A stretch of DNA of 64,000 nucleotides from Microthyrium microscopicum (Eukaryota): positions 4,400,689 to 4,464,688 of the forward strand of contig MU004231.1 of the NCBI GenBank assembly GCA_010405405.1, given 5' to 3'. Below are positions 4,001 to 64,000 of this stretch, in pieces. The notes beneath the pieces are model-generated. The model was not told the DNA's origin. It did no database searches and saw only the letters and a program-made list of their open reading frames with translations. Every line of letters begins with the position of its first letter. Within the stretch, counting starts at the first letter, position 1. The position numbers and the translations under genes are program-made.

Positions 4001-4043
4001 TAGCTAAGTTGTTAAGAGTAATTTCCTTTAAGAGAGAAGACTT

Positions 4044-4374
4044 TATTATAAACTTCTATAGACTTACTATAGAGATATAGGTATTCTACTACCTTCTTAC
4101 TTACTCTACTCTTATAGTACGCTATAAGAAGACTCTTTATTAATAAACTACTAGGTTAATATAAATAGTACCTATTCTCTACTATAACGAGATAAAGCTA
4201 AAATAGAGCTAAAGATAAGTAGAAGAAGTAGCCTTACTAAAGAAGAGACAAAGAGGAGTATAAGTAAAGAAGTAGACTTAATTTCTTAGAAGATTAAGTA
4301 TTAGTCTTATCTTAATACTAGTTCTTAGAATCTATTTTCTTTGCTTTAAACTATCTTTTATAAGATCTATAATA
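4044..4374 (+). repeat. Putative RIPed 3' LTR of the Gypsy element
   Basis: Purine tract agagagaaga (4031-4040) lies just before TATTATA (4044). Its reverse complement TATAATA lies at 4368-4374, consistent with RIPed TG...CA termini. Copia RT coding starts immediately after. Confidence 0.55.
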
Positions 4375-5730
4375 CTAAAATCTAAAACTAGAGATTTATG
4401 CTACTATTAGAGCTTACTATATATTACGTATAATTCTTATACTAATAGCTACGTTTAATCTAAATCTTTACTAATTTAACGTTATAAATACCTTCCTAAA
4501 TGCTATTCTAGATAAAATAGTTCTAATTTAATACCTTAAAAGCTTTAATATTTCTAGAAAGGTCTTACTACTTTGCTATACCCTCTATAAACTACTAAGA
4601 TCTCTATTATTATAGTATTAAGATATAAGAGCTACTCTCTATATAATAAAGTTTAAGCCTATTCTAAAAGACCCCTATCTTTTTAAATATATTTAGTATC
4701 TTATCTTTCTTTTTTATTATATTAATAACTTCCTCTTTCTCTTACTAAAAGCATATTAAGTAGAAGTAGATAAAATAAAATATAAACTTAATACGTACTA
4801 CGCTATAAGGAATTTAGGCACCCTAAAAAGCTTCTTTAATATTTAAATACTTTAAGATTAAGCTAATTAAAAGCTCTAGATTTTATAAGATTAGTATATT
4901 AATAAAATTAGTGCTAAATTCTAGCTTAATGTTATAAAGAAGACTAAATACGTTATTCCTATCTTAAATTTTATTAAACTTATTCTAAATAAAGAATAAA
5001 TATCTAAAGATTAAATCTATACTTTCTAAATGCGTTATAGCTCTATAATCTACCTTATAATAGTATATAAGCTAGATATCTATTATATAGCCTCTTATTT
5101 AAGCTATTTTAATTAGAATCCTTCTAAGCTTTACTACTATAAAATTAAGAGAACTATTCTATATCTTTAAGTAATAAAATACCTTACGCTTAAGTATTAT
5201 AAAACTACTAAAGTACTTACTACTAGCAAAGAAGTATTTTTTATAGCCTATAATACTATATTTATAAATAATTAAGAGACTTAAAGATTAACCTAAGGCT
5301 TTTTATTTAACCTATTTAGAGAACCTATTAACTAGTAATCTTTATACTAAAAGATAGTCTTAACATCTATAATAGAAGTAGAACTTCTATTCTTCTTAAA
5401 TACCTTAAAAGAGCTAATCTTAATCTAACGCCTCTTCTTATAGCTTAAGTTTAATCCTAATATTAAAATACTAATATTAAATAATAATACTTAAATAGTA
5501 GGTATTATAATAAAGTAGGCTTAGCTTTTATCTTCTAGATTAAAGTATGTTAATATATATTAGTTTTAGCTTTATTAAGAGGTTATAAAGGGCTATATCT
5601 CTATTAAATAAGTTCCTATAGGAGAGATACTAGTAGATAGTTTAATAAAAGCTTTCTCTCTATAAGAATATAAGAAGTTTAGGAAGATACTAAATTTAGT
5701 AGATATAAAGTACTTAGTACTAGCTTAAGA
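4375..5730 (+). mobile_element. RIP-degraded Ty1/Copia reverse transcriptase + RNase H (5'-truncated in this window)
   Basis: De-RIPed reading gives 'EIYA..GAY..LR','QFDV.NAFLNA.LD','LLL..ALYGL.RSPLLW','EDPCLF','FYYVDDFL','RSTQGFLF.LFGGPI.W.S..QKTVSTSTTEAEL','K.V.I...WL.QEV','P.GEM.AD.LTKAL'. Confidence 0.85.
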
Positions 5731-5967
5731 AGATTCTTTCTAGAACGCTATAAATACTTCTACTACTACTATAAATTGCTAAATCTCCTATATTTTTATA
5801 TAAGCTAGATCTTTTACGCTAAGGCTATCTAATAGTACTCTTTATTTCCTATTTTAACTAATTTTAATATTTTAGTAGCTTAGTTTTAAAAAACCTAAAA
5901 ATTAATATTCCTTTATACTTAATACTAAGTATATCTTAAAATCTATAGATTAGAAACTTAGGAAGTA

Positions 5968-6159
5968 TAATAAAAGGTTTATTCTAAACCCTAAATCTAC
6001 GCTAGTTCTAATTTAGGATTAAAAAGTAAAAATACTAAAATTTAGCCTTTATTAGCTATTATATCTTTTTGCCTTTTCTACCCCTTTCTATATATTACTT
6101 TTACCTTTATTATAGCCTAAATTCTAGGCTCTAAGAAGACACGTTTTATGTTTTTAATA
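5968..6159 (+). repeat. Putative RIPed 3' LTR of the Copia element
   Basis: aggaagta|taataaaagg resembles a RIPed PPT|TG start. ...ttttaata (6159) resembles a RIPed CAACA end. It coincides with the edge of the AT-rich block. Confidence 0.4.
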
Positions 6160-11670: not shown

Positions 11671-14600
11671 TCAATCCAACTCTAAAGCACCAACTCCTAT
11701 ATCAAAAACGAAATGCTTTTCCGCCTCTTTCAAATCCATCGTTTGCTGAGGACAAAACAGTCCCACGTCTAGTCCGCCGTCTCTAACAGCAAATTCAATA
11801 TCAATACCAGGCTGTTTAACCATTAGCGCACGCTCATCGTGTTCTTCATCATCACATACCTGATAAACTCCATCATTTCCATCATTTTTTAACTCATCCG
11901 GCTCCGTAAACCCACTAACATCTCTCTCCACAATCTTCGCCCGCGCTGCCAACACCTCATCCATCTCCGCGCGCACCGTCACTGGCCTCTCCTCCCCTTC
12001 GCCTTCTTCAGCACCAAGGAAGTTTACTGTTGTTTCAATACATATACCCGTCCATTCGTATATCTGCCACATTGAAACAGTGCTGTTAGCTAGTTCACGA
12101 ATCTGCGCCAGGTCCCCTTGGATCTGGCGCGCTGTATCGACAATGCTGTTCGAGGGTGTGATTTTCAGGGGCAGGATGTTAAGTGTGGGCACGGTGCTGG
12201 GTGTGTCGGGACGGTTGGCCATGTAGATTCCTAGTACTACTGCTTCTCCGGGCTGAGTGGTGGTTTGTTGGTGGTGGTGGGCGTAGAGTGCTAGGAGGAG
12301 GGCTTGCAGGGAGATGCTGTGTTTTCTGGCGAGGGTTTGGAGAGGGGATATGTCTGGTATGTGGTTTGGTTTGAAGATTTCGATGGTTTGGCCGTTGAAT
12401 GGGGGCTGAAGTTTTGCTGGTATGGGTGGGTGGTTGGAGAGGTAGGCTGTCCAGAATGTTTTGGCGGATCCGATGTTGGGGCTTTGCGTTGAGTTGATGG
12501 CTGCTGAGTGGGCGTTGAGGTTGAACGGCGGCGGAATGGTGCTGGCGTTGAGTATATCTTCGAAACGGGTCATGAGGGTGGCCAGGCTGTAGAGATCGTA
12601 GAGGGCGTGGTGGATTTTGAGATGAAGGGTGAACTTCTTGTTCTCTGTTTCGTGGATATTGACTTGGTGTAGGCATGGCCAATTACTGCTCTTTGAGAGT
12701 TTGGAATCTCTTGGATGTTTTGTTGTACCTTGTGGTTTGCGTATGATTTGTAAGTACCCACGGCCTGAGGAGACGAAACTAGTCCTCAGAATTGGTTCGA
12801 GATTGGCCAATGTTGCCCAGGCTTGCTCGATTCTATCCATATCGACCGATCCTTGAACTTGATATTGGAACTCTGGGTAGAACAGAGCGCCTTTGGAGGC
12901 TTTCCAGATTTCTAAGAAGTATGCCTGTCCAGCACTGGCTTGATAGATTGCTTCGATATCATCTTCAGAAAGACTTGAATGACTGAGCGCTGCCTTCTTG
13001 ATATCGTCCGACAGCAAGTTTTCTTGTTGTGCTGCAATAGGTCCATTGTCAGCAGTTGTAGATTTTATGGCTTCCACGATGCCTAGAACTGTTGGATTTC
13101 GTAACAGATCACTCAGTCGCAGGTTGATATTCGACTTCTTCAGCTGAGCGCATACTTTGATGGCACTGATAGAATCTAGACCCAACGAGAATATTGACGA
13201 TGCCGATGAGATTTCTTGCTTGTCAACACCAGCCACTGCAGCCAAGGCCTCGCGAACGACATTTGCTAGAGGTGAGTTTTCTTGTTTGAGCCCGGCGACT
13301 GGTGTATCAGAGCTCATGTCTTGTAAAATCGAATCATTCAGTTCGAACTCGGGCAAGGCCGCGACAGATACCTTGTTTCCATCACCCCTGAATTGTAAAC
13401 AATCATTTTCGGGCGATTTAACCATAGCTTGTAGCACAATTTCAAGGCAGGATATGATTGACATCTCATCCTCAGCAAGCACTCCCTCTTGGCATGCTGT
13501 TCGCCATACCAAGCCGTCGGTAGTGATCTCAGCCTCGACACAGACAGCATACTCAACACTAGAGTGACTGTCCACAGACGTATAAAGATCGTCAAACTCG
13601 CTACTGCCAGCGTCCGGTCGAGCCTGGAACAAGAACAATGTATCAAATAGCGTCTTGCCCGAAAGATCCGCCAGTTTCTGTGCCTTACGTAGCGGGTATT
13701 GCTGATGTTGACGGATAGAGATGAGATCGTTCTGCACTTCACGGAGGATCTCAGCAAAAGTTCCAACAATGAACGATCTGAAAGCGATCGTGTTCATGGT
13801 GGGAAACATGACCCGTTGAGCTTCCTCGCTATCTCGGCAAGATAGGACGACCCCGTATATGACTTCGAGTACTTCGGCTTTAGATGCTAGAACGAGCGTC
13901 CAGCATGTTTGCGTCAGTGTATGCATCGTGATGCCTTGCTTTTTGCAGAAGGTGCGGAGAACTGGAACCGAGATTGCAGAAATTACCTCCTGGCGGTGGA
14001 CTCGACTTTGCTGTGCACCCAAGGCGGAGAGAAACCATGAGGGACTATCTAGCAAATAGCTACTCCAAAACGACGCGGCTTCAGACTCGGATTGTTGGTT
14101 GATATGTTCCAACACTGAGTCGTATGGGATAACTTCTACCTCCTGGTCGTAATATAATGCTTTGATGTATTCGTGCAACAGCAAGATTGACCATCCATCA
14201 TACAGAGTATGCGGAAGCGAGAGAACTAATAAATTCTGTTGACACTGAGTCACAGTTGTGAGTCGGAGGAGGGAATCGAAAGTTGTTGTGTCTTCAGCGC
14301 GATGCTTTATCTCGTCTAAGACCTTGGAAACGTCCTCGTCGTGTGAGAGCGAAAGTTCCCTCCATGCTATTGAGAAAGCAGGCAAAACAACTTGAGCATA
14401 GGTGCTGTCGATGCCTGGATCTAAAATGGCCAGGAACACAGTTCGCAGGATGTCATTATTGTCAATGGTAGATTGCCAGGCCGTTTTGAGTTTATCGAGG
14501 TCAATCCCAGGATTGATCTTTAGAATATCATGATTGTAGTACTGCGTAAAATTGGAGTTGATCATGGTTGAATACATTCCTTCCTGGAGAGGTGTCGCAG

Positions 14601-17600
14601 GAAAGCACTTGTACGAGCTACTTGCTTCCAGAACTCCAGAGGCTATGAGATACTTTTCTAAGTTGCCGCTCACTTGAGTGAGCGATGGCTTTTTTGATAT
14701 TCCATTCGATGGAAGTATAGCGTGCAATTGTTCCGTGAGTGCTTTTAATGTAGCGTATTGCATTATCATGCTCACTGGTGCATTGATGCCATGTTTCAAG
14801 AGGTTTGCTGACAGTTTAATGACATCGATGCTGTCCAAACCGAGTTCAAATATGGTCTGAGTTGAAGATATGCTGTCAACTTGAACCAACGCTACAGCTG
14901 CAATTTCAGATCGTAGCCGGCGTGCTACTTCGGTCCATTCGAAAGACTCAAGCAATGGTGCTTGATCCTCTGTAGCTCTCTTTGTCTGAGGGATTTCTTT
15001 GGTGTCTCCAGAAGGGATATCGAGCTTCTCGTTGATCGGGCGAGTAGCATCGCTGATCAATAGGCTTAAAGCTATTTCAAATCTGTCCAGTAGTCCTTCG
15101 ATCGTCCCAGTCGTAAAATACTGGCTTTGACCAGTGATACACACTGCGAGAGTCTCATCTCTTAGTTCGGCTTCGAAGTTCAAAGGGTACAATGCTCCAG
15201 GATTCTCATCTTCGAGAGTCCAAAAAGAGTTGTTGTCGTAGTTTTCAACCTCCTCATCTCTGGCCTGGAATGTGAAGAGGTTGTTGAGAGTAGTACTTGG
15301 ATTGGACCGTATAGATTTCAAGACATCTCGTAGAGGAGTTTGTTGGTAGGGGAGTGCTGAGACATTGAATTCATGGCAAGTTTTGAGGAAAGATTCCCAA
15401 GTATTGGTCCTCTGCATTCTTGGTCTGAACAAAATGGTGTTGAACATTGGTCCGATAACCTCAGAAGCTTCTTCAATGTTACCGGTTCGCCCAGAAACTA
15501 CCATTCCGATCACTGGATGGTATTTGTGATGTTCTGTCAGTACCACACTCCAGACAGCTTGTACAATGGCCTGGTAGGTTATGCCTAGTTGTCTCCTGAG
15601 TGTGTCTAGACCTTGGAGGTTTCCAAATACTTTTGATCGACACACTGGCTCATCGTTAGTTGGAGGCTCACTCAATCTTTCCAGAGAGACCGGAACTGGG
15701 CCATTCAGAACTTCTTTCCAAAATCTGTCACTGTCTGGTAGCAGAGTGAAAGCACCTTGGTGGAACAGATCATGATATCTAGGTCCGTATGAGATTTGAG
15801 GTTTCCCATCATATAGCTTTCGGACAAGTGTCAGTAGAAGACCAAGCGCTATCCCGTCGTAGATGGCGTGATAAATATGCAGGACCAGGTAAAGACAGTC
15901 CGAGCCTTCCAGTAGGACTAAAGATAATGGCTCATGCATCGTGTGTTGAAGGATGCTTGATTCAATCCATTGAGACCGAGACTTGGCAATGGCATCTTTC
16001 AATTCAGAATAGTCGCTTATGCAGATTTCTTGCCAAGGTAGAGCTTTAGACTTTAGAATAGCCTGAATCAACACCTCGGATTGAAGGAAGCATGTCCTCA
16101 AGATGTCCAGGTTTTGGTATGCATCATTCCAAGCTGTTCGCAATCTAGTCTTATCGATGTTTTCTGCCAGTTTCATCTTGAAGGTAACAAAGTAATGATC
16201 AGTTTTGCCACGTAATGTTTCGGAGACGATTCCTTCTTGTAAGGCAGTGCACGGAGTGACAACTTTCAGATCGGAAATCTTGATACCCAAAGCTCTCGAT
16301 GTCGTGGATACGTATTTGTGATGGAATACCGTGGCTCGATGCTTCTCTCTTAGAGAGTTATTACGGTCTGCTGAACTTTGGTCATGGCTTCGAAGCGCCT
16401 GGGAAAGACTTGAGACTACAGGATGCTGCAGCATCAATGAGGGTGATGCTAAATCGTATCCTGATTGCTTCAGTAAGCGTGATAGTCGAATGGCTGATAT
16501 AGAGTCTAGTCCCAGCTCAAGTATGTTTGAGGATGGAGTGATGTTTACTATTGGAATTGAGAAATTTTCTGACAGCACACTAGCAATGCGACTCTCTTCA
16601 CTGTTCAACCTCGTCCTTATATCAACCCCAAAGCTTTGGATTTGCTCTAAACTGGTCAGCTCAAATAGTGCAGTCAGTTTCTTCTTGTCCACTTTGTTAT
16701 TTGGAGTTAATGGTATGGTAGATACGGGCAAGATGTGAGTCGGTACCATGTAAGGTGGGAGCTTACTTCTGCAAGCTTCGAGGATATCAGATACTACAGC
16801 TCGACCTTGCTCATCGAATGCTAGCGATTGAGGATGCTTCCAAGTCGTTTTTACTGTTGCAATGACGAAGGACACTAATTGTTGTCGCTGCTGCTTGGGG
16901 TGGCGCAGGACAAAGGTTGCAACATCGTGAACTCGTGAAAAACTTTTGATAACATTGTCGATCTCGCCTATCTCCAGTCTTTGGCCTCGAAGTTTGATCT
17001 GGTCATCTTTGCGACCCAGAAACTCGTATGTGCCATCATGAAAAAGTCGAACCAGGTCTCCTGTCCGGTATACTCTTTCTCCAAAGCGTCCCAGAAAGGG
17101 AAACTTGACGTCAGTCAGTCTCTCGTTATTAAGATAGCCTTTACCAACGAGCTTCCCAGAGCAACACAGCTCACCAACGCCACCTCGAATAACGGGAATG
17201 TCTGTACCAGGCTTAAGGACAAAACAGCCGACGTTGTCAAATTGATGTCCTATATTCGAAGGCTTGCCATTCTCAGGCACACGACGAAACATTGTACAAC
17301 CAATGGTGAGCTCTGTAGGACCATATCCATTGAATATGGCACTTTTGGCTCCCCAAATATCCAGTATATCCTGGCGAAGAGCTTCTCCTCCAGTGATAAA
17401 TACACCACCGCAGAGCGAAGGGATCTCGTCGGGGCTAGTCAATGTTGCAGCAAGACTCGGAGTCAGGTCAAGGTGCGTAATTTCTACCTTCTTGATAAAC
17501 CCTTCAATATCTTCAAGAATAAGATCTCGTGGAGCGGAAACAACACGAATGCCTTCTGACCAACTCCAAAACTGCTCCATGACAGACACATCAAAGTGGA

Positions 17601-20600
17601 ACGAGGCAAATTGGAGCCATTTTGATCTTTTGTTCCAACGGCCGGCGAATTGGATTGAGAATGCTCGCATGGCTTGCACGGCATTTTGGTGTGTCAACTC
17701 GCAGCCTTTCGGAAGACCTGTTGAGCCGCTCGTGTAGAGGCAATAACATAGATCGTTTGGAGATATAAATACTGCTTTGGGCTTGGGATCAATATTATGT
17801 GCCGGCAAGCTGTCTGCTAGGATGACTTTGACCGAGTTCAAGTCTAAAAAGTCGAACTTGTGCTCCATAGATTTGGTGGTAAGTACGATAGTTGCTCCAG
17901 AATCACGAATGATATGCTTTTTTCGTTCGTCTGGCGCGTTTGGGTCAATAGCGACATAGCCATATCCTGCTTTAAGTATACCCAGAATTGAAAAGGAAGC
18001 TTCGGGGCATTTCTCAAAGCATATTGCCACCATGGCACTTTTCCCAGTAACTGTTTTCTGGACGTGACTTGCGATGCGATTGCCTTCAAAGTCCAGTTGG
18101 GCATAAGTCCAAGTCTGGCTCTCAATATCAGGACCATGGATACTGGTGATAAACTCCAAGGCTATATTCCGGGGGTTTAACTCTGCTTGCCGTTCCACGA
18201 ATTGATGCAGTAAGGATACTGGGCTTGAAAGTGCCTTGACCTTTGGAGGAAGAACAGAAATAAGACTCTGGTGGAAATTCACTTCTCTAGAATCATTTTG
18301 GTCGAGAAGCTGATAAAATAGTTGGTCAAACTGCCGCAACATGATTTTGGCTTGCTTTACTGGTAATTTTGCTTCATCGAACGTGGCTCTTATCAAGAGC
18401 TCACCAGAGCGACGTGGTTCCAACTCAATAGAAACAGTGTACTCATCAGTGGCAACTTCCTCCACAAGCTTCCAAGATACACTCTCAATATCTAGTGGCA
18501 ATTGCTGAATTACAACTATAGTATCAAAGAGGGGTTCATTTGGAAGTCCAGCCCAGTAAGATATGTCCTTGCTCTGGCAAAACTGATGTCGACGTATCCC
18601 AGAATTGAAATTCATGATGCTTTTCAAAAGCTGTTCATTGTCATTCGTAACTCGACATGAAAAAGGTACTGTCGTGAGACAGGGAAAAACAGCGTTCTCG
18701 GCTTCGGGAATCACATCTCTTCCAGAGAGAACAACACCGAACATGACTACTGGTTCATTTGTATATGCAGAGAGTATATGAGCCCAGGTAGCCTGAGCAG
18801 CGGCCTGCAACGAAATCCCAGCAGCTCTCAGTGAACCGTTCAGCTGATCCATTGTCTTAACTGATGTTATTTCCTCCATTTTTGTGTTGGATGGATAGCG
18901 AAGTGGTGATAAATCCGGAAATCTGGTTGGGCCTGCCTCTCCGATGGAGCCTTCGCCTAGATGCTCTCCCCAAAATGTAGCATGAGAGCTAGACTTGCTC
19001 AAAGTGTCTTCTGCTAGACTACCTGCTATGATTGAAGAAATGATGAGATCACTGGAATCTGGAGCAGGCAGAGGCAAGTTTTTCTTCGTGAATAGCTCTG
19101 CTAGGTCTCTCAAGAGCATTTGCAGACATTGAGCATCAAACAAAGCATGCAACAGACCCATGTGTAAATGCAAGCGTTGCTTTGACTTAGTGATCATATA
19201 CCTCCAAGGGGGACGGGTAATGTCCTGATGACACCTTGCAATCGTGTCTTTTCGCCATTGAAGAATCTGTTCTCTGGTAAGCAGTAGAGCTGTATGATTC
19301 TCTGGAAAATGGTCAATCTGTTGGTAAATAACCATGGAAAATTCAGATATCTTGCTTTGGTTGGGAACAAATCCAGTTCGCAAGATAGCGTGCCTGGCAA
19401 CCAATTGTGTAAATGCTGTCACCACATATGACACAGTTGTCCCGTGTGGTATTTCGAATGTCATACAGTTGAAATAACGATTCCCAGTTCTAATGAATTG
19501 TGCCAGAAGTCCTGATTGTGCTGGAGTGCAAGGCCTGATGCTTTCTATACGTTTGTCGAATTGAAGTGGACTCAACGCTAGCGTTTTGGTGACATTGGCT
19601 TTAGACGCCTCCTCGTACTCTGCCAGGTTGAATGGTAATGGGGAAGGCTCTGGCTGATTATCGAGTCCTTCATCCATGAGCTTTGCCAGATCTCTAAGAA
19701 CCGGTCTTTCAAGAATATCTGAGCTTGCTACTCTTCTGCCAGTAGCCTTACTAATCTCCACCGCAAGCTGTATGGCACCGATACTGTCCACTCCTAGGTG
19801 ATAAATGGATGTCGAAGGACGTATATTACTATAAGAAACTCCGGTGAATGCTTGTAATATGCTGAAAAGACTTGTCTCCGCCGTAGACAAGGAAATAAAC
19901 GGGGTATCTTGGGTATTTGTTGAATTTGTTGATGGCTTAGAGTATAAAATAGAGGCAAGTGCCGGGTATCTCAAGGGGGTATCTTTTTTGGCGTTCATCA
20001 TTGAAGAAGATGGGAATCTTAAGAAGTTATTAAAAATGGAAACAAATGACTGGCACATTTCGGTGGCACAATGGGGAGAGATAATTTGCCTAAAGAGTCA
20101 GTTTAGGGATATATACTCATATGCGTTCTTTTTAACTTACGAATCATAATGCAAGTTCAGGGATAAAGAGTTGCTCGAGGCTTGGGGAACGACTTCAAAC
20201 ACTAGAGGGTACTAGAATTTTGTCAATAGTTGTCTTCTCGGATTGAAGAGGAAACTGACTGCCATGTTTCCCACATCGGACTGAAGAGTCCAAACCGTTT
20301 CATCGAGTATGTAAGATTCATGCTGTACGAGTAATAAAATGTTGAAAAGGCCAGCCTGGGAAAACCCCAAGTGAGACTGTATAGCGCGAAGTGGAGTCAA
20401 TTGATATTCCTGTGATTCAATTGAAAGATTCTGCAGATCTTGGATCAAACTCAGTGCTTCGGAATATTCAGAGATATCGACTCTGACGGGGATAGTGTTG
20501 AAAGTAGGAAACACTAGGCGCTCGAGGCCATCCAAAGGGTATATACGACCACTAACAATAGTGCCAAAACAAATGTCGTCTTTTCCGAATACAGATCCAA

Positions 20601-23600
20601 CAACATTGGCCAAGGTTGCTTGGCTTGCCGACAGCAGTGAAGCAGAGATATCATAGCTCTTTCGGTTGAACAGGCTTAGGTCAATAATATTAGCTGTAGT
20701 AGACTTGTATGGTTTTCTGGTTTCTGCTCTGAAAAGTGTTGGAGAAAATGAATCCAGTTTTTTAGCCCAGTATTGAAGATTCTTTTGCGAACGCTGAGCT
20801 TGAATACGATTCAAGAATGGCTCAACCGGAATAGCCTTTGGTAAAGGCGTCCCTCGATAGACCATTTCTACCTCATTGATGACTTGTTGTATTGCTGTGG
20901 CATCATAAACAGCATGATGGCATGCAAACTGGAGATGGTCGTGAGAGCCTATTTTGGCGAATCGTAGATACACTGGAGGCAAGTGGTGCTCTAAATTTCT
21001 GAGGACCAGTATCGGCAAATTCCTTCCGAGTTCGCTATTCATCACTTCACTGTTGGTGTTTTCATCCCCATCAGCCCAGTGATCCGACCAGCCGTCCAAA
21101 ACTACCTGGACAAAAGGATAATCTAGATTGCTGGACTGAACAAACGCCGTGCGAAATATTTCATGCCTCTGGAGAACCACAGTCCACGCTGCCTTAAACC
21201 TCTCGACTGAGCCAGTCAAATGAAACTGCATAACGTTGCAATAAGCATCGGATGATGAATCGGTAGCTGACAGCATGGCTTCTTGAAGTGGTGTACATGG
21301 CAACATCTTGACAACACGCAAATCGTTCTCGCTGAAGAAGGATAGGACTTGTTGTTTGTGATCGTCAGAAAGAAATGGATCGACGAATGCCGGTTTGCTG
21401 TCCTGTAGGCCATCTACCGAGCTTTGAAGAGCCTTTGCCAGCTTTCTGATAGTTGGATTTTCGAGGATGAGAGCAATAGACGCGTTTTCATATCCCAAGT
21501 CGCGCAGGCTTTTTGCAAGGGAGATGGCTTGTATCGAGTCAATTCCGTATCTTGACATAGGAGCGGCACTGTTAAACTTCGATATTGGCGTTTTCGTGAT
21601 CTGTTGAATCAATCGCCATATCTGATCCTCTTCTAGGGTGCTTTGATACTCGATATCTTCCAATGCGGTGTGTTCTATTACTGTTGAGTCCATATTGATG
21701 TTACCATCGCGAGACATGATGCTCGCCCAGTCATCCGATACCAACTCTGGTGGGAGATCTAGAACCATGGTATTTGGGGTCTTTACGAATAGCGCAGCCA
21801 GCTTGTCAACATGCTGAAGAAACCAGGAAGCTGAGTTTTGATCGAAAACAGAGGTATCATAGACAAGTTTTCCAGCTAATTCTGATTCTTGCGGCTCGAT
21901 CTCAAGTGTAAGCTTAAATTCCAAATGGTCATTAGAGCTCTCAACAATAGCCACATCTGATTCTTCGATATCATTGCTGACTAGTGATTCCTGCCAGATG
22001 AACAAGGCCTCTGTAATAGGCTTGCCCAGTGGAATTTCGGCGGCTTTTTTAAGATCACTCATTGACGCTAGGGAGTTCTCAACTAGCCTTCGATTCAAGA
22101 GATGTAACCTGGCTAGGAGATCAATGACCTCTCTTGCATGATTTATGTTGATTCTTAGTGGCAGTGTTGTCATACAAGGTCCAACCACGGATTCCAGTCC
22201 CGATATTGGCAGTGTTCGACCAGACGTGACAGCACCTAGGATAACCTCGGCCTGTTCGACTTTGGCAGCAATAAGGCAGATAAATGCAGCTTGAAATACG
22301 CATTGCGGGGTGACACCCATACGTGCTGTGTAAGAGCGCAGCTTGTCTAGGGGAAGGGAGAAGGATGTTGTTGCCACTCCCGGTTCTGATGATTTTGTGG
22401 GAGATGAGCTTGATATCAGCGTTGGTGAGCACTGCGAAAGATGCCGCTGCCAGTAATCCAACGAAGGGCCTTTATCTGCTGTGTGATAATACTCCTGGAC
22501 AACGCCATAAGGGACTCGGGGTGCTAATGGCAGGCCGGAGCATAGATCTTGTAGGTCCTTGAGAATGAGATCCATTGACCAGCCATCAAAGCAAGCATGA
22601 TGTATTGTAAGGTGGACACGAGTAGAACCTTGTCTTCGTTGGACCCAAAATTGAACGGGCAAATCCAGTGATAGTGTTGTATCATTTCCTTCATCAAATA
22701 AGATCGGCACTGAGGTTGCCTGGCGAACCAATTGCACAAATGGAAAGCCATCCACTGGTGTCTCGGTAAATCCAGAACGTAGTATTTCATTCTTCTGAAC
22801 CAAATCTTCAATGATTGATTGTATTTCTGGATTTGATAGTGTACTCGGAAACTTGATTGTGAACCAATTCCAGTAGGCGTCGGGATTTTTGAGAGATTCG
22901 ATGAGCATTCCTAGTTGTATTGGCGAGCATTTCCGGACACTTTCAGCGTCAGTCCAGGTGGTCCGGAGGTGCTTCTGGTATTCCGGCCACTCTTCCAGCC
23001 TTTCGAGACTTGGGCTGGGCTTCTCCTGTGTGAGAGTGGGTCTGATGTCAGACTGAACCATTTTGGCAATATCTCTGACATATCTACACTTCATCAGCTC
23101 AACAGGAAATACCTCGATTCCTGCATCTCTAAGTTTGGATGCCACTACGATTGTTAACAGAGAATCGATACCAGCTCCAATCAATGATGAATGGACATCA
23201 AATTCTCTCCCAATGCATTCTTGAACGATGCGGTGAATCTTGCGACTATTCTCATCAACATTCTCGTCACTGCTTCCTGATTGTCCAGTATGTTGTCTAT
23301 ACTGGGTTTCAAGTGCTGTTTTATCCACTTTACCAGAAGACAAATGCGGAAAATTTGGCAGAAGGACTACATCTCCAGGAATCATGAAAGATGGTAGCCA
23401 TTTCTGACAAGCTGCTGTTATATCCTCTTCACTTACATCCTTTTCAGCGCAACAGAAAAGTACAAGATTGTTAGAAATGATACTTGCGGCAGCGACTTTA
23501 CAGCCAGGAGCGAGCAAGGCGGTTTGTTCAATTTCACCCAATTCTACTCGCTGCCCTCTCAATTTGACTTGACCGGTTGAAATCCGACCCAAACACTCAA

Positions 23601-25341
23601 TTGAGCCATTTGGCAAGATGCGAGCTTTGTCACCAGTTCGATAAAGTCGCCCCAATTTAGGATCATCAATAAAGGCTGCACTTGTTTGATCCGGTCGATT
23701 GATGTATTTGTCTGCGAGTTGAGGACCACCAACGGCAAGTTCACCCACAAACCCAACTGGAAGAACTACCAACTCATCGTACAACTCCGAGCTTGCAGGG
23801 GCAACAACGCAAGACAATACGGAGTCCAGGGGAAAGCCAATGTTGCCAACTCTATATGAAGACTTGAATGCTGGTTGTAGGGTACAGTGGATGGCTGCTT
23901 CAGTAGGACCATACATGGCCCAAAGTATCGGTTCTTGAACATCACTACCACCAAACTCTTCAATCACAGGCTTGGTAAGCATCTCGCCAATCGTCAGCAG
24001 TAGCTTGAGTTTTGGCACTGCCGATCTGCGCTGTAGTAAAGAGCTAGCAACGGTTGGTGTCAATTCCGCCGCATCGACATCAAGTGCGTTCATGAACCCA
24101 GGCAAGTCATTGAGAAGAGTTCGCCTATCACAGCATATCAGAGTAGCTTGTCGATAGAAAGTGAAGAATATCTCAAAAAGTGAAACGTCGAACGTGGGAG
24201 CTGCGAATTGGAGAAACCGATAAAATTTGGGAATGTGTCGATCGTGGGCTAGTAAACTTTGTGTGGCTGCTCGATGAGAAATTGGCACGCCTTTGGGTTT
24301 GCCAGTGCTTCCACTGGTGTACATGATATATGCAGTTGATTCGGTGGTAATCTGATAGACAGGTTCATGACTTTTGCTCGCTGAATTGTTTTCATGTTTG
24401 TCGACTATCAAACAGGGGCAACCAAGGGACTTTAGACGATCGGAACTTGCTTGGGTAGTCAGCACCAAAGGCGCAGAGATATCGGCTACTATAAATTGTA
24501 GTCTCTCATCTGGCGCGTCCGAGTTGATAGGACAGAATGCACATCCACTCTTCATGATGGCTAGCTGGGCAATGTAAAGATCGACGGATTGCGGCAATAA
24601 TATGGCAATCGATGGCTGAGAAGAAAAAGATGCATGCTGTAATGAGGCCTGTATGCGCGCTGCAAGCTGGTCACTGCGATTTTGTAGTTCATGATATGAT
24701 ACCACCATCCTTACACCATCAGCATCTTGATACTCTATTGCACAGTCTGCTCCGTCGTGATCGACCAAATCATGGAGCAACTCCGGGCCTAGTAGAACTT
24801 GTGGTCTGGAATTGAGAATGGCTGAGCCTAGACTCTTGAGATGAGATATTGGTATATCTTGTGACCCATGTTGTTGAATCCATTGCAAAGCGAGACGTAA
24901 GTGCTCTGATATCTGTTGAAGATGATCGAGAGGAACTATTCCATTACATTGAATCTTGATTTTCTGAGCCTTCACGTCGCAGAGTATTGCTAGAGAGACT
25001 TCTTGCTGGGCTTGAGGCTGGAAGAAGATACCTGTCAACCTGCTTTGGTAGCTTTTCGTATTTGATGGGTTCGATTCCAGTTTCTCCAGGGTCCATGGAT
25101 TTGTTGTGATCTTTACGATTCCAGCGTCCGTGAGAAATATCAGCTCTTCGTTTCCTGTGTATGACTTTAGGACAGAAGCCCAAGCATAGAGAAGTCGCTC
25201 CTCATCATCGGACTCGAATCTCATGTAGACCTCTTCGCGTCTCAAGGCTCCATGATCTTCCGGTTCTTCAAGAAAAAGACTTGGAAAGCGCGTAGGACCC
25301 GTAACGCGTCCCATTACATGATGGTTCGGCTGAGAACCCAT
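11671..25341 (-). CDS. sidC: Ferrichrome/ferricrocin-family siderophore nonribosomal peptide synthetase (SidC/NPS2-like), ~4,500 aa, A-T-C-T-C-T-C-A-T-C-T-C-T-C
   Basis: Two A domains (YTSGSTGxPKG, YGPTE, YRTGD, KLRGQR), six T motifs (G[IVL]DS) and six C motifs (HxxxD). The two ORF-track pieces join in frame through introns 20212-20259 and 20090-20140. There is a probable in-frame intron at 11812-11859. The terminal A-T-C-T-C-T-C is typical of this family. Confidence 0.92.
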
Positions 25342-25862
25342 GACGCACAAGTCGCGAGCGAATTTGAAGTCAACATATATCTCTCATAAAAAAATGAAAC
25401 ACTGCAAAAGGTTCTTGCAAAGCTTTCAGTTGTCTAGGTCCATAATAAAGTGCCGACGTCGGCATGCTTAAATTCAAGGCGAAGCAATAATCATGCTTCT
25501 GGCCAACAATGGCAGGCAGGAGGCTTCGTTTTCCAGCAAATAAGTGGGGGCGTGACGACAAGGACAAGCCTTGACTAACAAAAGTCATCACGTCATAAAA
25601 AGCAAACAAGAAATTGGATTCATGGCATAAATCTAGTCAATTTCGTCTATCTGTAGGAACTTGTATGCTTTATCAAATTCAGGTGCTACTAGATATCTGT
25701 AGTTGTTTTGACTGCTAGCATTAATAGCTAGGGCGCCCTCTACGCTGTCAGTCCCGCCCAAGAGAGGGCGGCTCACAACATTCTAACTCCTTTGTTATAT
25801 CTCGTCAAATGCTGTGAAGTTATATATTGGATTCTTCAATTCTGCGCAGAGTAGTTAAAATA

Positions 25863-46191: not shown

Positions 46192-47772
46192 TTATTGCAT
46201 AATCTCTTGATAGTCTTGGCTTCCTTTGAGACATTTCGATATGTGGATCAAATGTCCTCGTTCTCGTCGGACGTAAGCGGCGAAACATGCTGCTCCTGTT
46301 ATCACTGCGCCTAGGCTGATGAAGACTGGTATCAGGAAATCTTTTGGCTGAGGAAATATCACGGTCGATGTGAAGGCGAGAAGTTCAAAGAAGTTCTGAA
46401 GAGCTTGTTCGGAGGTGGAGAACTCGCCACGCTTGTCTTCCGCTGTAGCCTGTAGATCAGATGATTAGCTGATAGAGCAAGTCAAAGGAACGCTCCAACG
46501 TACCTCTTGGACAATATCTTGCACTGCCAGATCTACAGCCCAAAGTCCCAATCTGCTCAAGATAATTCCGGCCGTCAATGCCGGGCCAGCTCGCCCTGGT
46601 GTGCTCTGCAGCAAGGCGAATGCAAACACCGCTCCCGTCAGAGACAATACTTGAAAGTTTATTGACCACAGACCAGCTCGGACGTCCCCCAAGTGCTTCA
46701 TGAGTGGTGGCGCAAGACAGGTGGCAAGAAGCTCAGAGATGACGGCTGCAAATCGGAAGAGACTGACTGAAACAGCGTCGAATCCATTGGAGAGCATATA
46801 TGCTTGCCATTGGGATGCGGTGGAGAGAACAGTGAGATAGAGCAGTGAAAGTGAGAAGGACGGTAAGAAGGCTGGTGAATGCGTGTAAGTTTTCCAGGCT
46901 GATAAGCAGTTGGATCTGTGGCTGGTGCCCTTTTGATGCTGCTGTTGTGAGCTTCGAGTTGCTCCTTCAGAAGCTTCCTCGAGTTCTACAGTTTGTCCTA
47001 GACTGTCATCTCTTTGTTGCGCTCTCACTGCCAGTTCTGGAACGGCACTGTAGACGCGAGCAATAGCAATGTATTCTGCAAGTACCGAGCATGTTGTTAG
47101 ACCCAACAACACTAGAACCGATATCAGGGTTGAGTATGCCTGGATCAATGAAATAAACACTGGCGCTGCTAGTTTGCAGAATAAGTCGATTCTTCGCATT
47201 GCAGCATTTAGCTGTGCTCTGTCGATGTCCAGGCTTGTAGCTATGACAATTGCCCCTGCCCAAAGTTAGCCATTACATTTTTCTCTAGTACCATGGCACT
47301 TACAGTCTCTTTCAATGGCTACAGTATTTGCAATAGAAGCGAGTTTCTCAACACAGGCCAACAGCACAGTGATTGAAAAGCATACTCCAAAGAGCAACCT
47401 TGGTAACCCATGATCATTGTTAGAATTGGTAATCATCAACAAGCCAAAAATTGCACAAGAAGTAGCGACCGGAATCCTCTGCCATATTATCGATGCTCGA
47501 ATAACAACTAGTCGATTTGAGTGATCAATATAGCTTCCGATTTTGGATGAAAGTACTGTGGCCGCAAATGCGCGTACCAATGCATAAACTGAGGAGTAGA
47601 AAAGTGTGCCTGGAGTAATACTGATGATGAACAAAATTGCGCCAAATTCGAAAGCTCTTGAGTTCCAGACGGATAGGAAATGAGAAACATAGAGTCTTCG
47701 AGTTGTGGTAGAGACTGAATGCTCTCTGTGGGACAAAGCATCGTCATCGAATCGATCTACCATCCCGTCCAT
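46192..47772 (-). CDS. Ferroportin (FPN1/SLC40)-family metal exporter (3 exons)
   Basis: 'RLYVSHFLSVWNSRAFEFGA','NTVAIERD','NAAMRRIDLFCKLAAP','LLYLTVLS','SRLGLWAVDLAVQDIVQE','EQALQNFFEL','RRERGHLIH'. Confidence 0.9.
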
Positions 47773-48204
47773 TTCACTGAAATACAGCTGGGGTTCGTGT
47801 TGATCAAACTGCGTCTTGCTCGGACTAGACCAAGAAGCATTTCGGAGTTAATTTATGTCGATAGTAGAAGGTCTTCGGTTGCAAATACTATGTACATAAT
47901 GTATGTAGAACTTGAAGTAGGGTTTAAGCGAAAGCGGCGGATATAATCGTATGGTCAGCACACCATAACTTCGAGTTTACTCAAACTCTTGGTGGTTGAA
48001 AAAATAAAAGCAAGACTTTCGTTCGAAGAATAATGGGCGAGTTTTAACTTCCAGTAAACGTAGCACGTAAAACTAATTTATTGCATAAAAGAACAAACGC
48101 TGCTTCAATTTCGTGTTTTGCAATCGATGTCAATATTGTTGTCGCTGGTCTAATGAATACATTTAGCTAAGAGCAATGGCTTCCTTCAGAAGTTAAACAT
48201 CCGT

Positions 48205-57107: not shown

Positions 57108-57674
57108 AACAAATGGAGCGGCAATTCTATGCAATTATCCGGACACACAATAGCGGCAATCCGTGCTTTGACGGATTTGTCCATAATCTGGCCCTGTAGA
57201 TGAGCCTCAATCTATTCTAGCGTGAGAACAATGCGTAGATCATCTCATTGCAAAGGAGTTTCTCTTCTCTCGGCCTACTACTCTGCAAAATCAGACTTGG
57301 CCAGAAGCAGCTGTCTGGAACAACACCCGAGACGAAATATAGGTTGGCTCAACCAATGTAAGATTACAGTATTACCATACTCTATTTTGTTGCGATGCTA
57401 ATATTTGATTAACTCTGCAGATCACCTATAATACATACTATTCGAAATCAAGTCTCCCAGAATACCTTGATTTGCATAGAACTATCTAAACAACGACTGG
57501 CATGCAATGGCCAAGTCGTCAAATGAATCCAAATTTTGTACAGTTCGCTAAACACTTCCGGTACTTTCTTGCTCATCTTTCAGATGAATGGCAGATGTAC
57601 ACGGTTAATGTAATGCTCTCCTTCAACTCTTGAGCACATCATCTTCTCCCATCGCTTGCCAATGCATTCGTCGT

Positions 57675-59005
57675 TTACTTTGGGCAAGGTCCGTTACCAT
57701 CGTGGTTCACGTTTGTGGGGCAAGCATCTGGGCACGTTAGAATTGGCGCCAGCTTCATCGCTTGAGCAGCGGCTGATGGTCCGCTGATATGCTATTTGAT
57801 AATGCTTCATCACAATAACAATTCAGAAGATAGCAGGCTATGCCAGCGCTGATGACAATCGTGTATAAGATGTCTTACCATGACGTTTTTGGACCATTGC
57901 CTTTGGTGGGGGATGGTCATCGCCATCTGGGCCATGAGCAGCTCTTTTCGCAATCATGACGCAAGGACCATTACCATCGCTGCAGGAGGATTAGTTAGAG
58001 TATGTCCCAACACTGATCGCAATGGAAGTTGTCAAGCTGCCATGCTGCCAAGCTATTCTGTCTCTTTTGCAGAACAACAATGTAGCATGTCGCAAAAACC
58101 AGCGGGATGAGAACTTACTGTCTCTTCATGTTCGTGGGGCAAGCATCATGTCTCTTCATAATCTGGACGCAAGGCCTAGCACGTTGTCAGAATAAGATCA
58201 TGAGAAGGAATGACACAAGTTGACAAGCTTTGGGGAAACAAGGCAAATGTTACCAAATTGACACGCGCTGGGAAGACCAGGCGGCCAACTCGATACCATA
58301 ACTTGCTGAAAAATCATCCCAAAGTGTTTTGGTATGAGGAGACTTACCCATTACCGTCGTGACGCTTCATGTTTGTGGGGCATGCGTCGTGGCGCTTCAT
58401 GACCTGGACGCAAGGCCTAGCACATCGATTAGCAAAGATTCGCCAATGTTCACTGATAAAGTATTGTTGGAAACCAACACGCAAGAAAATGATGTTTTTT
58501 TCCTCCCGGTACGAGATCTCTCACATGTTGCAGTAGCCATAGAAGTTTCATGGGAGCCGCAACATGCTACAACATATATCAAAAGAAGATAAACTTACCC
58601 ATTACCGTCGTGACGCTTCATGTTTGTCGGGCATGCATCGTGACGCCTTGTTAGGGGCACGATATGGGGGCAAGGCCTGGCGGATCCGTTAGCAAAGGTT
58701 TACCAATGTTTACGCAAAGTTCTTCGTTGACAAATGTTCACCGACAAGTGTTGTGTTGCTGCAAGTCAGAATGCAAAGAGAAGACTATTTCTTCCTCTCA
58801 GCAAGACTGTTGCGCTCATAGCGATCACAAAGTGTTGTGAAAGCCGCAAGATGCCATGGTATCGGGACAAGAAGTTCTTGTACGGGGAGACTCACCCATT
58901 GCCATCGTGACGCTTCATGTTTGTTGGGCATGCATCATGAGGAGCGGGAGCGGCGAAGCTGCCAGCAGCGAGAACGAAGAGGACGACTTTTTGGAAGGTG
59001 TACAT
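57675..59005 (-). CDS. Secreted Kex2-processed repeat protein (KEP / peptide precursor), 155 aa, 6 exons: 59005-58896, 58676-58599, 58416-58348, 58175-58119, 57979-57879, 57727-57675
   Basis: All five introns have GT(A/G)AG donors, CTRAY branch sites and YAG acceptors. The spliced CDS is 468 nt with no internal stop: MYTFQKVVLFVLAAGSFAAPAPHDACPTNMKRHDGNGPCPHIVPLTRRHDACPTNMKRHDGNGPCVQVMKRHDACPTNMKRHDGNGPCVQIMKRHDACPTNMKRHDGNGPCVMIAKRAAHGPDGDDHPPPKAMVQKRHDACPTNVNHDGNGPCPK. Repeats differ mostly at synonymous positions. Confidence 0.92.
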
Positions 59006-62000
59006 TTTGGCTGATGTTTGTTGAATAGTTGTATGTTTGGTGAGAGAATGAACGTATGAGTAGGTCTACTAATGAATGAAAACCTTGATTCTTGGTGACT
59101 TGAGCATCGACCATTAGAAGGCGAGGTATGTGGTCTTATAAGTTAGCTCTTCGCGCCTTGGACTTTCCGTCTCGCGCTTTCGATTAATCTACGGACGTAC
59201 CCCGACTATGACACTAGCATGGTTTGATTTCATCGATTTGCCTTAATTCGTTAACATATAACTGGAGATGACGGCACCAAGAATTTAGGATTGATTAAAG
59301 CTTGGAGAAGAGTACGTCGTGGCGTGAGCTTGTTAAGGTATGCGATGGCCATAACGGTCTATGTGACAGGGTTCTTTCTAGGATATCCTAAGAAAAACTT
59401 TCATTTATACGCTCGCTTTGACGACGGGACCGGCTGTCACTGCGCTCGAAAGCTGAACTAGGTATGATAACAGAATCAACCTATGGTATGATTTGCCCCA
59501 ATATGTATCCTGCATAGTGAAAATTGCTCAAAAGCATACGCGTAAGGGAAAAACCTATTTCATCTTTCCACTGGATCTAATCCAAAGTTTATCCTTCATC
59601 TTGCAATACTTAGTAACTGTTTGTTGAAAAGGCTCAACTGATGAAGGGTGAGAGAAGAGTTTTCTCAGTGACTGCTGAATCAATAATATTTCCGTGTAGT
59701 TGATTGGGCTTGAAACATCTTGAAACATTCCAGAGCATACAGCTCGACGCGAAAGCAATATTAGAACCTGGGGTTCATACGCAGTACCCACAAAACCCAA
59801 ACTGGTTGTAGATAACAGGGTTAGCGTTTTAATCAACTTCAATCTTTCGTCTAAGCGTGAAGTTAATATACGATCTTCAAATAATGCTTTGACAATAACT
59901 CAGCAGTTAAGATACAGGGTTTGATTCTCTGACGGCAGTTTGAAAGGCATCAATAACAACCTCCTGGACACCGTACCTGGTTACTATAGCTTTGGTCAGG
60001 TACACGCAACAGGGACCAGAAACCTTTTATTTTGAGGTATTTGTACTTGAGACGGTTTACCTAGAATTAAATGCAGCTCTTCAATGATATTGATCAAGGA
60101 TCGAGTAATTAAGATATTCGTGCCTAAACCTATTCATCAAAACGTATGTTGGAAATACCTGCTTGTTTACGGCCTCAACTCTTGTCGTAAACCCACAGAG
60201 CTAGGTACATTATAGATGTTTATGGGTAGCCACTATGATCTAAAAGGAAATGATAGAAAACCAATGGTCTCTTGCGTCTTTCTGCACCCACAAAACTGCA
60301 GTGTGTCCTTGTGGCAAAGCCGCAATAACGCACGAAGTGGGCATAAATTATTTTGAGATCGCCACTTGAACGGGACACATGTAGATGCAGACTATGTCGC
60401 CAGCAATCCCTTGGAAGGGGGCGAAGTTGTATTCAAATAGCCTGAATAGACATCGTGGCGACAAACGTGGGAGATCTACGTTGCTAGCGAGCAGTCCCAA
60501 AACTCGGAAGACATGTGATATCTATTAAGGACTTGCCATGACCGAGATTCTTTAGATTTATCATTAGGCGCTAGTGTATGGCGCAAAGACCTCGCCACGC
60601 GTAAATGAAAATCTGGGGAACAATATAGGCCGCTTCGCCCTTCAAACTAGCCGAAACCACTGCTTGCAAAAATCTAGGAACCTCATCGTACGTGATGATT
60701 CACTTGGTCCAATAGACGTCAATGCTAGCTATAGCCCCACAATCTAGTCCGTATTGGCCTTGAGACTGGCGATTCCATGGCTTTGGAAACACCAAGTTCA
60801 CAACGTACGAATGATATCCCAGATATTCGGGCTCAAGTTTCCAGCCACGTGCTTATGGCTATCGTATTCGTGACAGATGAACAAAGTATGCGTGCGTATT
60901 ATTCACGCTCGATGAAATCAACAAGATCACGTAGCTGCTGCCTCTTGCATTGTCCTGGCCCCTCGAAGGGCAATATGGGCAAAAGCTTATACTCGACTAG
61001 AACTCAGGGCACGATGTCTAGTGCCACCAGTCAATGAGCATAATTGAACTGTATACTGCATTTGATAAGCGCATATCATGCACAAAGATCTAAACTTAGT
61101 CACGGGCACGAGATTCCAGACCGCCATAACAGGGGTTCATTATGGCCACACAAGGGGTAATTTGACAGCTATATTATGGTCTGTCCTGCCTTCGAATCCC
61201 CGGTATTATTCTTTCGTATCTATCGAAGATGGTGTTGTCAAAATATTCATGATCCTATCAGATCAAAGGGTCGTAAATATGCATTAGTGAATAGGCCATG
61301 GACTTTACCAACCTTGCAATGCGCTGAGTTACAATATAAAGTCCAGACTTTATGCTCATACTTATATGCCTTACAGTCACTGAAGAGTCAGGCGGCTGTG
61401 TTAGTAGGGAAATATACAGCTATCATATAACCAATCAGACTCGGTTGCGTAGGCTCCAATCTATCGCATTTCTCCTGGCATTTCTGGAGCGCAGGAGTAT
61501 GTATTGGTGATGGGTTGGATCATGAAACCACCTCCAAATCTCAAGTTCAGCCTGTCCTGATGGCAAACCTGAATCATTTTCGCTGCTTTGCAAATGAAAT
61601 AATTATAAACTTTCCTGGTTCGCAATAGAAGCAAAAGATCTTGCTTATCTATTCACAGTTTTCGAATGTTCTCTTCAGGTCGTGATTAGTGGCTATCAAT
61701 CAGTGAGCTCGCATTTATTGTTTACGACTCTCCACTTAAGAGATCTAGGTCACGAAAAGAAAGGGTTATGATAGGATAGAGTGTAATATTCATCCTATAA
61801 GGCTATAACTGAAGACAAGAAAAACTATTTCCTCTCTGGTAGAGCCTCCAGTCCTCCTCAGTTCGGCCACGAGCACCTCAAGGTCGGCTAGTGCACCACA
61901 ATATTGACATAATGCACATAGTCGATTGAGGATTTCCTCATCCCGACATCTTGAGGAAAGCATGCGATTGACTTCGATTTCAGCTGCTAGGTGTAGCATG

Positions 62001-63929: not shown

Positions 63930-64000
63930 ATGGTTTCTTCAAAGATCTTTGCCGCTGCCGCGCTTGCGAGTATCGCGTCTGCCATTGACCATCAGGTCAA
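63930..64000 (+). CDS. 5' end of a secreted protein (truncated by window edge)
   Basis: catcATG context and TATAAAA at ~63857. It translates to MVSSKIFAAAALASIASA-IDHQV, a clear signal peptide. Confidence 0.65.
   Translation, partial: MVSSKIFAAAALASIASAIDHQV

Follow-up and report, generated by a model that had tools for sequence, protein, structure and literature searches.

Positions 59005-57675 of the minus strand of the window, the whole 64,000-nt stretch of Microthyrium microscopicum DNA that was analyzed, carry a gene with six coding exons whose spliced frame is open and encodes a 155-aa precursor. Position 58951 falls on the first residue past the predicted signal peptide, and 57675 is the end of the stop codon. 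Two short cores recur in the precursor: A (HDACPTN) and B (HDGNGPC followed by a variable tail), each with one Cys. The features of the gene are as follows.

59135..59200, minus strand: probable 5′ UTR intron, upstream of the start codon
58896..59005, minus strand: coding exon 1 (signal peptide, AP-AP, A1, start of B1)
59005-58952, minus strand: signal peptide, amino acids 1-18, cleavage site inferred by eye
58951-58940, minus strand: AP-AP, within coding exon 1
58677..58895, minus strand: predicted intron 1, 219 nt, phase 2, within the second Gly of B
58599..58676, minus strand: coding exon 2 (end of B1 with an RR site, A2, start of B2)
58417..58598, minus strand: predicted intron 2, 182 nt, phase 2
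58348..58416, minus strand: coding exon 3 (end of B2, A3, start of B3)
58176..58347, minus strand: predicted intron 3, 172 nt, phase 2
58119..58175, minus strand: coding exon 4 (end of B3, A4, B4 His codon as far as its second base)
57980..58118, minus strand: predicted intron 4, 139 nt, phase 2, offset 12 nt toward the start of the unit relative to introns 1-3
57879..57979, minus strand: coding exon 5 (B4, odd Cys-free segment, His of the fused unit)
57942-57883, minus strand: odd Cys-free segment, within coding exon 5
57728..57878, minus strand: predicted intron 5, 151 nt, phase 1
57675..57727, minus strand: coding exon 6 (fused A+B unit, stop codon)

The coding introns have GT..AG ends, and a branch-like site precedes each chosen acceptor; alternative in-frame acceptors are present at each of the five. 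Retention of intron 1 would end the protein at 37 aa. Introns 1 and 2 are related to each other (alignment score of 102 versus 38 ± 9 for shuffled sequences). The positions of introns 4 (57980-58118) and 5 (57728-57878), both on the minus strand, within the repeat unit differ from those of introns 1-3, which suggests intron sliding or gain during unit duplication. The most hydrophobic 9-residue stretch of the signal peptide spans amino acids 7-15 (mean Kyte-Doolittle value of 2.9).

Run X1, judged to be RNA, provided four contigs over the region; such contigs drop minority forms. None of the five coding-intron joints is spliced in them, all five introns being run through. The spliced joints seen are 57358-57420 on the plus strand and 59135-59200 on the minus strand, before the start codon. 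The latter interval is skipped by one contig whose short side measures 30 letters; it has CT..AC ends, corresponding to GT..AG on the minus strand, with a branch-like site and AG visible. A single contig from run X2, which covers a small share of the window only, ends at 57728, where the final acceptor is predicted, and leaves two letters unaligned, which hints weakly at intron 5 splicing. The plus-strand joint is a GT..AG intron past the stop codon of the Afi1/SPA gene, the 3′ neighbor of the window gene. Since the same contig continues unspliced to 58371, the Afi1/SPA 3′ UTR may overlap the window gene in antisense, and read-through from this convergent neighbor may account for part of the unspliced coverage.

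Beyond Afi1/SPA lie an EF-hand gene, a GH114 gene, and a ferroportin (FPN1) gene at 46465-47847 (minus strand), ~10 kb from the window gene. The nearest recognized gene on the 5′ side encodes a secreted cupredoxin, 4.9 kb away and divergent (63930-64000, plus strand, continuing at L004:1619-1966), with His, Cys, His, and Met in type-1 copper spacing; the genome holds ~8 loci of its relatives (10 matches). Four short frames between the two genes have no Pfam match. Elsewhere in the window, two long frames at 11671-25383 (minus strand) read by eye as the two parts of a single siderophore-type non-ribosomal peptide synthetase interrupted by an intron, and positions 1-6000 form an AT-rich block (GC ~0.22) with short tandem repeats that resembles a RIP-decayed repeat region.

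Architecture and conservation of the precursor

Nine KR/RR sites divide the precursor into ten segments. The first eight, A1 B1 A2 B2 A3 B3 A4 B4, make up four A+B units; the ninth, here called the odd segment, has His and Asp but no Cys, and the tenth is the fused A+B unit. The preliminary description stated that every predicted product starts with His, and we find the same: eight of the ten segments do so directly, one after AP-AP, and one after AA. Because the segments belong to no more than three types, of which they are copies, the ten starts do not count as ten independent cases. A strict alternation of A and B with one Cys each had also been described; it applies to eight segments and is broken by the Cys-free AA segment, which is Pro-rich, with AA followed by His and a total of two His and three Asp. 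This segment shares the His start and the His/Asp richness with A and B, while its homology to B is not significant (P = 0.07-0.58). The described fusion of A and B in the last unit was confirmed: Val-Asn replaces Met-Lys-Arg (GTG AAC in place of ATG AAG CGT), and the two Cys are 12 apart. Overall, there are five A-type and five B-type Cys. Aromatic residues, Tyr and Trp included, and HH are absent after the signal peptide, and the invariant cores consist of His, Asp, Cys, and turn formers.

Given canonical processing, a free N-terminal His1 is predicted for all ten segments; in the odd segment, it would be His3 if untrimmed. AP following the signal peptide is common among fungal secreted proteins.

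Judged by its architecture, the precursor is a Kex2-processed repeat protein (KEP). As in KEPs described in PMC6339444, PMC7329392, and PMC9769878, a signal peptide precedes cores that recur between KR/RR sites, XA/XP dipeptides are present, and the repeats are of more than one type; as in most of them, there is no DUF3328 neighbor. What sets it apart are two alternating one-Cys cores that would rebuild a two-Cys ancestor, with all products His-first. Neither core is listed with the conserved KEP motifs in section 10 of PMC6339444, and the literature searched, the PMC6339444 peptide table and PMC7329392 sequences excluded, contained no His-first, two-chain, or pheromone slot-derived KEP.

Across 14 core codons in five copies, we counted at least 11 synonymous and zero replacement changes; for this core, which was chosen after its invariance had been seen, the P value under neutrality is ~3e-8 to 2e-6, according to the transition bias assumed. 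With the tails counted in, units 2-4 at their full 23 codons yielded a pS of 0.55 and a pN of 0.08 (pN/pS of 0.15), and the four tail codons alone a pN/pS of 1.2, the hydrophobic tails being the varying part. Recent duplication is not the source of core identity, since the introns are far diverged. The cores are thus under purifying selection, and the window gene is almost certainly functional, with its coding splicing predicted.

The gene is single-copy: a paralogue search of the genome, the one fungal genome covered, returned none. Homologue searches used single exons of 36-57 aa as queries, which gives low sensitivity. No homologues were found among 23 candidates (proteins of 73-2000 aa, shorter ones left out) or among 6 others (89-2000 aa). 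HMMER against 1.84 billion representatives returned three matches, all long unrelated repeat proteins. In JGI metagenomes, none of 598 pattern matches was confirmed as a homologue, and none of 47 tandem KRHD-pattern loci had the A or B core in the displayed context; the best ESM Atlas score, 0.78, was under the lead threshold. Absence of the window gene from the protein collection is uninformative, as two control frames from the window are likewise absent.

The first slot of the genome's alpha-pheromone precursor

To ask whether the window gene is the mating pheromone gene, we searched the genome with a W-C..G-[QE]-x-C pattern. Two of the 41 matches are 108 bases apart on contig C10, which encodes the following precursor.

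L098:874-1395 (G000:C10:204873-205394), plus strand: alpha-type pheromone precursor P0005, 173 aa

P0005 contains two Trp-rich two-Cys repeats preceded by a divergent first slot. It is identical to the deposited protein KAF2665932.1 (Microthyrium microscopicum), bears the UniRef name clock-controlled pheromone ccg-4, and was the only match to itself among 176 candidates. Two copies of CTATTGAG, given as the MAT1-1-1 motif of Penicillium (PMC10512297), lie upstream of the pheromone gene (5 of 200 shuffles reach two); the motif is absent within 5 kb upstream of the window gene. Since P0005 is the pheromone gene and lies elsewhere in the genome, the window gene is not, and its candidacy as the genome's ppg1/ccg-4 was rejected. 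The same holds for its candidacy as an alpha-type precursor, whose repeats have 9-14 aa, an N-terminal Trp, two Cys, and a GQ/PG-type turn: the window gene has one Cys per segment. It further differs from such precursors (ppg1/ccg-4) in the lack of Trp, in Cys that are spaced by 13, or by 12 in the fused unit, instead of 7, in an inner KR-His-Asp insert, in five introns, and in having no MAT1-1-1 motif.

An origin in the pheromone precursor, which the preliminary description had missed, is nevertheless apparent in the first slot of P0005. Residues 30-42 read HDAC-YQP-NGPC-AK, that is, the first four residues of A and the last four of B, then x-K. HDAC and NGPC are the sole 4-mers common to P0005 and the 155-aa protein and occur in the same order. 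The fused unit aligned to P0005 with a score of 44, reached by 3 of 20000 P0005 shuffles (P = 1.5e-4) and by 0 of 711 control frames; for the whole 155-aa protein, P was 0.004. The two motifs occur 110 and 149 times genome-wide, an ordered in-frame pair is expected ~1e-8 times per 173-codon frame, and H-D-x-C-x4-G-P-C has a single occurrence in the genome. The shared motif was recognized post hoc; P0005, however, had been retrieved for another reason. Within P0005, the slot shares the C-x6-C-x-K register with the pheromone repeats, the spacing from the slot to a following Ile-Leu matches that seen behind the first pheromone repeat, and an N-glycosylation sequon precedes it. No close dibasic site flanks the slot, and its His is therefore not predicted to be N-terminal. 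Taken together, a common origin of the window gene and the pheromone-precursor slot is very likely, judging from the shared residues and register.

Comparable slots occur in Leotiomycete precursors (PMC10569646, supplementary file 12, with 115 precursors), which was motif-searched whole and of which part 1 of 10 supplied the entries inspected. In those entries, the two-Cys slot carries no pheromone-repeat annotation. GGAC was counted 57 times across the 115 entries, and all 11 places listed correspond to a C-N-[LM]-V-G-G-A-C slot; a C-NMIGGP-C slot is found at four places. The A. pellizariae slot, A-C-FLPGGP-C-A-K, is identical by eye to the P0005 slot at 8 of 11 positions. In several of these precursors, KR sites lie on both sides of the slot, which would therefore come out as a peptide. 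HDAC and NGPC have no occurrences in the 115 entries as printed, in a blocks-of-ten layout that would hide some. The Mycosphaerella graminicola pheromone in the supplement of PMC6265332 is similar in its Trp and Cys, and neither HDAC nor NGPC is found in that supplement; pheromone content was absent from PMC8905617. Five motif strings from the window gene and P0005 were absent from the literature searched, which included few subscription papers. Such repeats may have been described, as alpha-like, by Martin et al. in 2011.

Because the slot Cys and the G-[PA]-C end recur in Leotiomycetes and His-Asp does not, the former are old and His-Asp looks lineage-specific. The slot is also more widely spread than the window gene, and we infer descent from precursor to window gene. 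A and B seem to correspond to complementary halves of a single two-Cys ancestor, both carrying a copy of its His-Asp at the start, which would explain both the single Cys in each and their common start. A lineage-restricted Kex2-processed repeat protein would have arisen from a secondary two-Cys slot of an alpha-pheromone precursor, and its working unit would be A+B rather than A and B apart. The earlier proposal that a free N-terminal His is required remains plausible but is weaker than claimed, as His-Asp was probably inherited from the precursor slot and is missing from the Leotiomycete slots.

Predicted processing and disulfide pairing

The P4 residue is Asn at all four A|B sites, which are duplicates and hence not independent, and Leu, Val, or Ile at all five other sites. 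P4 Leu favors Kex2 cleavage (PMC12141369), and the selectivity of yeast Kex2 resides mostly at P1 and P2 (PMC6223083). The poorer context at A|B than at between-unit sites makes looped or two-chain products possible: a Kex2 cut inside an A-B loop is expected to be slower and probably partial, yielding both forms. Units 1-4 all keep the inner KR site, the Arg codon of which varies synonymously, and unit 5 has lost it. The genome has one P_proprotein match of the Kex2 type, in an 891-aa frame, and three DPPIV_N (DPP IV family) loci, one of which looks by eye like a type II membrane protein.

Disulfide formation takes place in the ER and precedes cleavage by Kex2 in the late Golgi. Pairing of each A Cys with the next B Cys is favored, since it uses all ten Cys, while B-to-next-A pairing strands some. 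An A-B disulfide, suggested in the preliminary description as an alternative to metal chelation, gains support from the five-plus-five Cys parity, the fused unit, and an ancestral slot holding both Cys; on these grounds, we consider it probable. Such pairing and thiolate chelation are mutually exclusive, so any metal site would be on His/Asp, not on Cys.

Processing would then run as follows. The signal peptide is removed as the precursor enters the ER, where each A Cys and the following B Cys probably oxidize, forming five loops with all ten Cys used. Kex2 would cut between units at aliphatic-P4 sites and more slowly within the loop at Asn-Met-Lys-Arg; from known specificities, Kex1 would trim the basic ends and a Ste13-type enzyme would strip AP-AP and AA. 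This would yield two chains held together by a disulfide, both beginning with a free His-Asp, or, wherever Kex2 leaves the inner site intact or the site is missing, as in unit 5, a closed loop. The monoisotopic masses calculated for Kex1-trimmed products are 887.33 for A, 1455.69, 1155.48, 1169.50, and 1112.47 for B1-B4, 1838.84 for the odd segment with AA, and 1746.68 for the reduced fused unit (1744.67 when oxidized); two-chain A-B2 would have a mass of 2040.79, and the uncut oxidized loop one of 2306.98.

Insulin and the yeast K1/K28 killer toxins are two-chain disulfide-linked products of dibasic processing, in which a precursor disulfide is followed by Kex2-type chain separation, as proposed here for A-B. 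The A-B chains differ from them in being 8-14 residues long, in having one disulfide repeated four times per precursor, and in lacking a connecting peptide beyond Lys-Arg.

Metal binding, signaling, and other possible roles

The tether may pre-organize a bis(His-1) amine/imidazole site for extracellular Cu(II) or a similar ion. A free N-terminal His, which allows amine-plus-imidazole chelation, is common to the predicted product and the His-1/His-2/ATCUN copper peptides (His-Leu, yeast alpha-factor, GHK; PMC11220758), among which yeast alpha-factor is listed as a His-2 binder; the product predicted here would differ in covalently tethering two His-1 ends. At micromolar levels, His-1 peptides bind Cu(II) more weakly than His-2/His-3 peptides, as strong binding takes bis-complexes and few of these form (PMC11220758), a limit that the tether would lift. 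The tethered pair would bind at concentrations where single His-1 peptides bind poorly, and such a pair would explain why there is a second His-Asp start as well as why there is one disulfide. If AA is retained, the odd segment would be an ATCUN-type (Xaa-Xaa-His) site. The suggested resemblance to the Ni-SOD hook, in turn, does not hold. The hook, His1-Cys2-x-x-Pro5-Cys6, needs Cys2 and Cys6 as thiolates. Peptide A shares with it His1, Pro5, and an N-terminus freed by proteolysis; its Cys is at position 4, that of B (His1, Cys7) at position 7, and both are probably oxidized in the secretory pathway, so that the Cys2/Cys6 pair is missing.

The secreted cupredoxin as nearest recognized 5′ gene is a weak, after-the-fact hint at a metal role. 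Upstream metal-response motifs were not in excess after correction for six tests; CARGGT, one of the six motifs tried, had four sites versus 1.2 expected and is not counted. Against a metal role, His-Asp is already present in the P0005 slot, where no dibasic site exposes it, and is absent from the Leotiomycete slots; the His start may therefore have been inherited rather than selected for a free amine. Copper binding alone is no proof of role, as any His-1 peptide binds copper somewhat. On balance, handling of copper or a similar metal by a tethered N-terminal His pair is tentatively the most likely main role. The fuller proposal of a ribosomal two-chain metallophore, in which a cryptic pheromone-precursor peptide came to have its own gene, gained an inner Kex2 site, and now holds a His pair by a disulfide, is more doubtful.

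Pheromone-derived signaling is nearly as likely as the metal-clamp role. The gene could amplify a non-canonical second peptide, once co-released with alpha-pheromone, whose looped or two-chain product acts on a GPCR, either modulating Ste2 or using another receptor, with His1 as the receptor contact. His1 makes such a contact in secretin/glucagon-family hormones. The origin in a pheromone precursor fits this possibility, as does a division of labor in which the window gene supplies the close dibasic sites that the P0005 slot lacks. Comparable slots are KR-flanked on both sides in several Leotiomycete precursors (PMC10569646), and Ste13-trimmed KEPs have been proposed as hormone candidates (PMC6339444). 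Against signaling, the peptides, unlike the genome's own pheromone, contain no Trp or other aromatic residue, the oxidized Cys2-Cys9 alpha-pheromone of F. oxysporum is inactive (PMC7289986), STE2 has a single locus in the genome, and CTATTGAG occurs nowhere within 5 kb upstream, versus twice at the pheromone gene. A direct repeat of TGAAACA at 59711 and 59721 (59711-59727, plus strand), 10 bases apart and ~700 bases upstream of the start codon, is not in the tail-to-tail geometry preferred by Ste12 (bioRxiv 10.1101/117911). It was rejected as Ste12 evidence: the genome has 9 such pairs versus 24 for the reversed control, and no mating gene was recognized by eye at the other 8. Promoter words shared by the window gene and the pheromone gene were not in excess. 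Metal and signaling roles are compatible and can coexist.

Extracellular defense, adhesion, or redox activity on a leaf or litter surface, with the products serving as antimicrobials, cross-linkers, or thiol buffers independently of receptors and stoichiometric metal binding, is improbable. The release of many copies would fit a bulk role, a cytolytic toxin and amyloid-like surface peptides are among the KEP products (PMC9769878), and Cu complexes of His-1 peptides are redox active (PMC11220758), but the peptides are short, polar, and non-cationic after Kex1 trimming, and their hydrophobic tails are the part that varies (pN/pS of 1.2). We regard as very unlikely a dikaritin-like RiPP precursor with cores cyclized by DUF3328/UstYa oxidases encoded elsewhere. 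The genome has 22 UstYa matches, and some DUF3328-linked KEP types are His-rich (PMC7329392); however, the sole UstYa matches on the contig are ~3.8 Mb off (the nearest at ~0.67 Mb, the window gene at 4.46 Mb). Dikaritin membership was rejected on both neighbors and core residues, with no tailoring genes recognized among the scanned neighbors and no Tyr, Trp, or HH in the cores for cross-linking. There is equally little chance that the gene is decayed or silent, or its exon model wrong, and its pheromone-slot link fortuitous. All five coding introns are unspliced in X1 contigs, no homologue was found in searches, and further in-frame acceptors exist at each intron, but removing five canonical introns restores identical cores, synonymous divergence is ~0.5 with zero residue changes, a minus-strand transcript spliced ahead of the start codon runs into the gene, and minority forms are dropped from the contigs.

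Most KEPs are orphans of unknown origin and function, while the source of the window gene is traceable; it would exemplify how the pro-region of a pheromone can give rise to a new gene for a secreted peptide. The two-Cys slot recurs across alpha-pheromone precursors of many species, unmarked in the part of the published annotation covered here, and the Leotiomycete slot is a candidate second peptide of these precursors. If the metallophore reading is true, this secondary slot would be a bioactive peptide in its own right. The window gene raises the questions of what role the secondary slot has and whether fungi build disulfide-tethered, His-first metal clamps via Kex2 processing.
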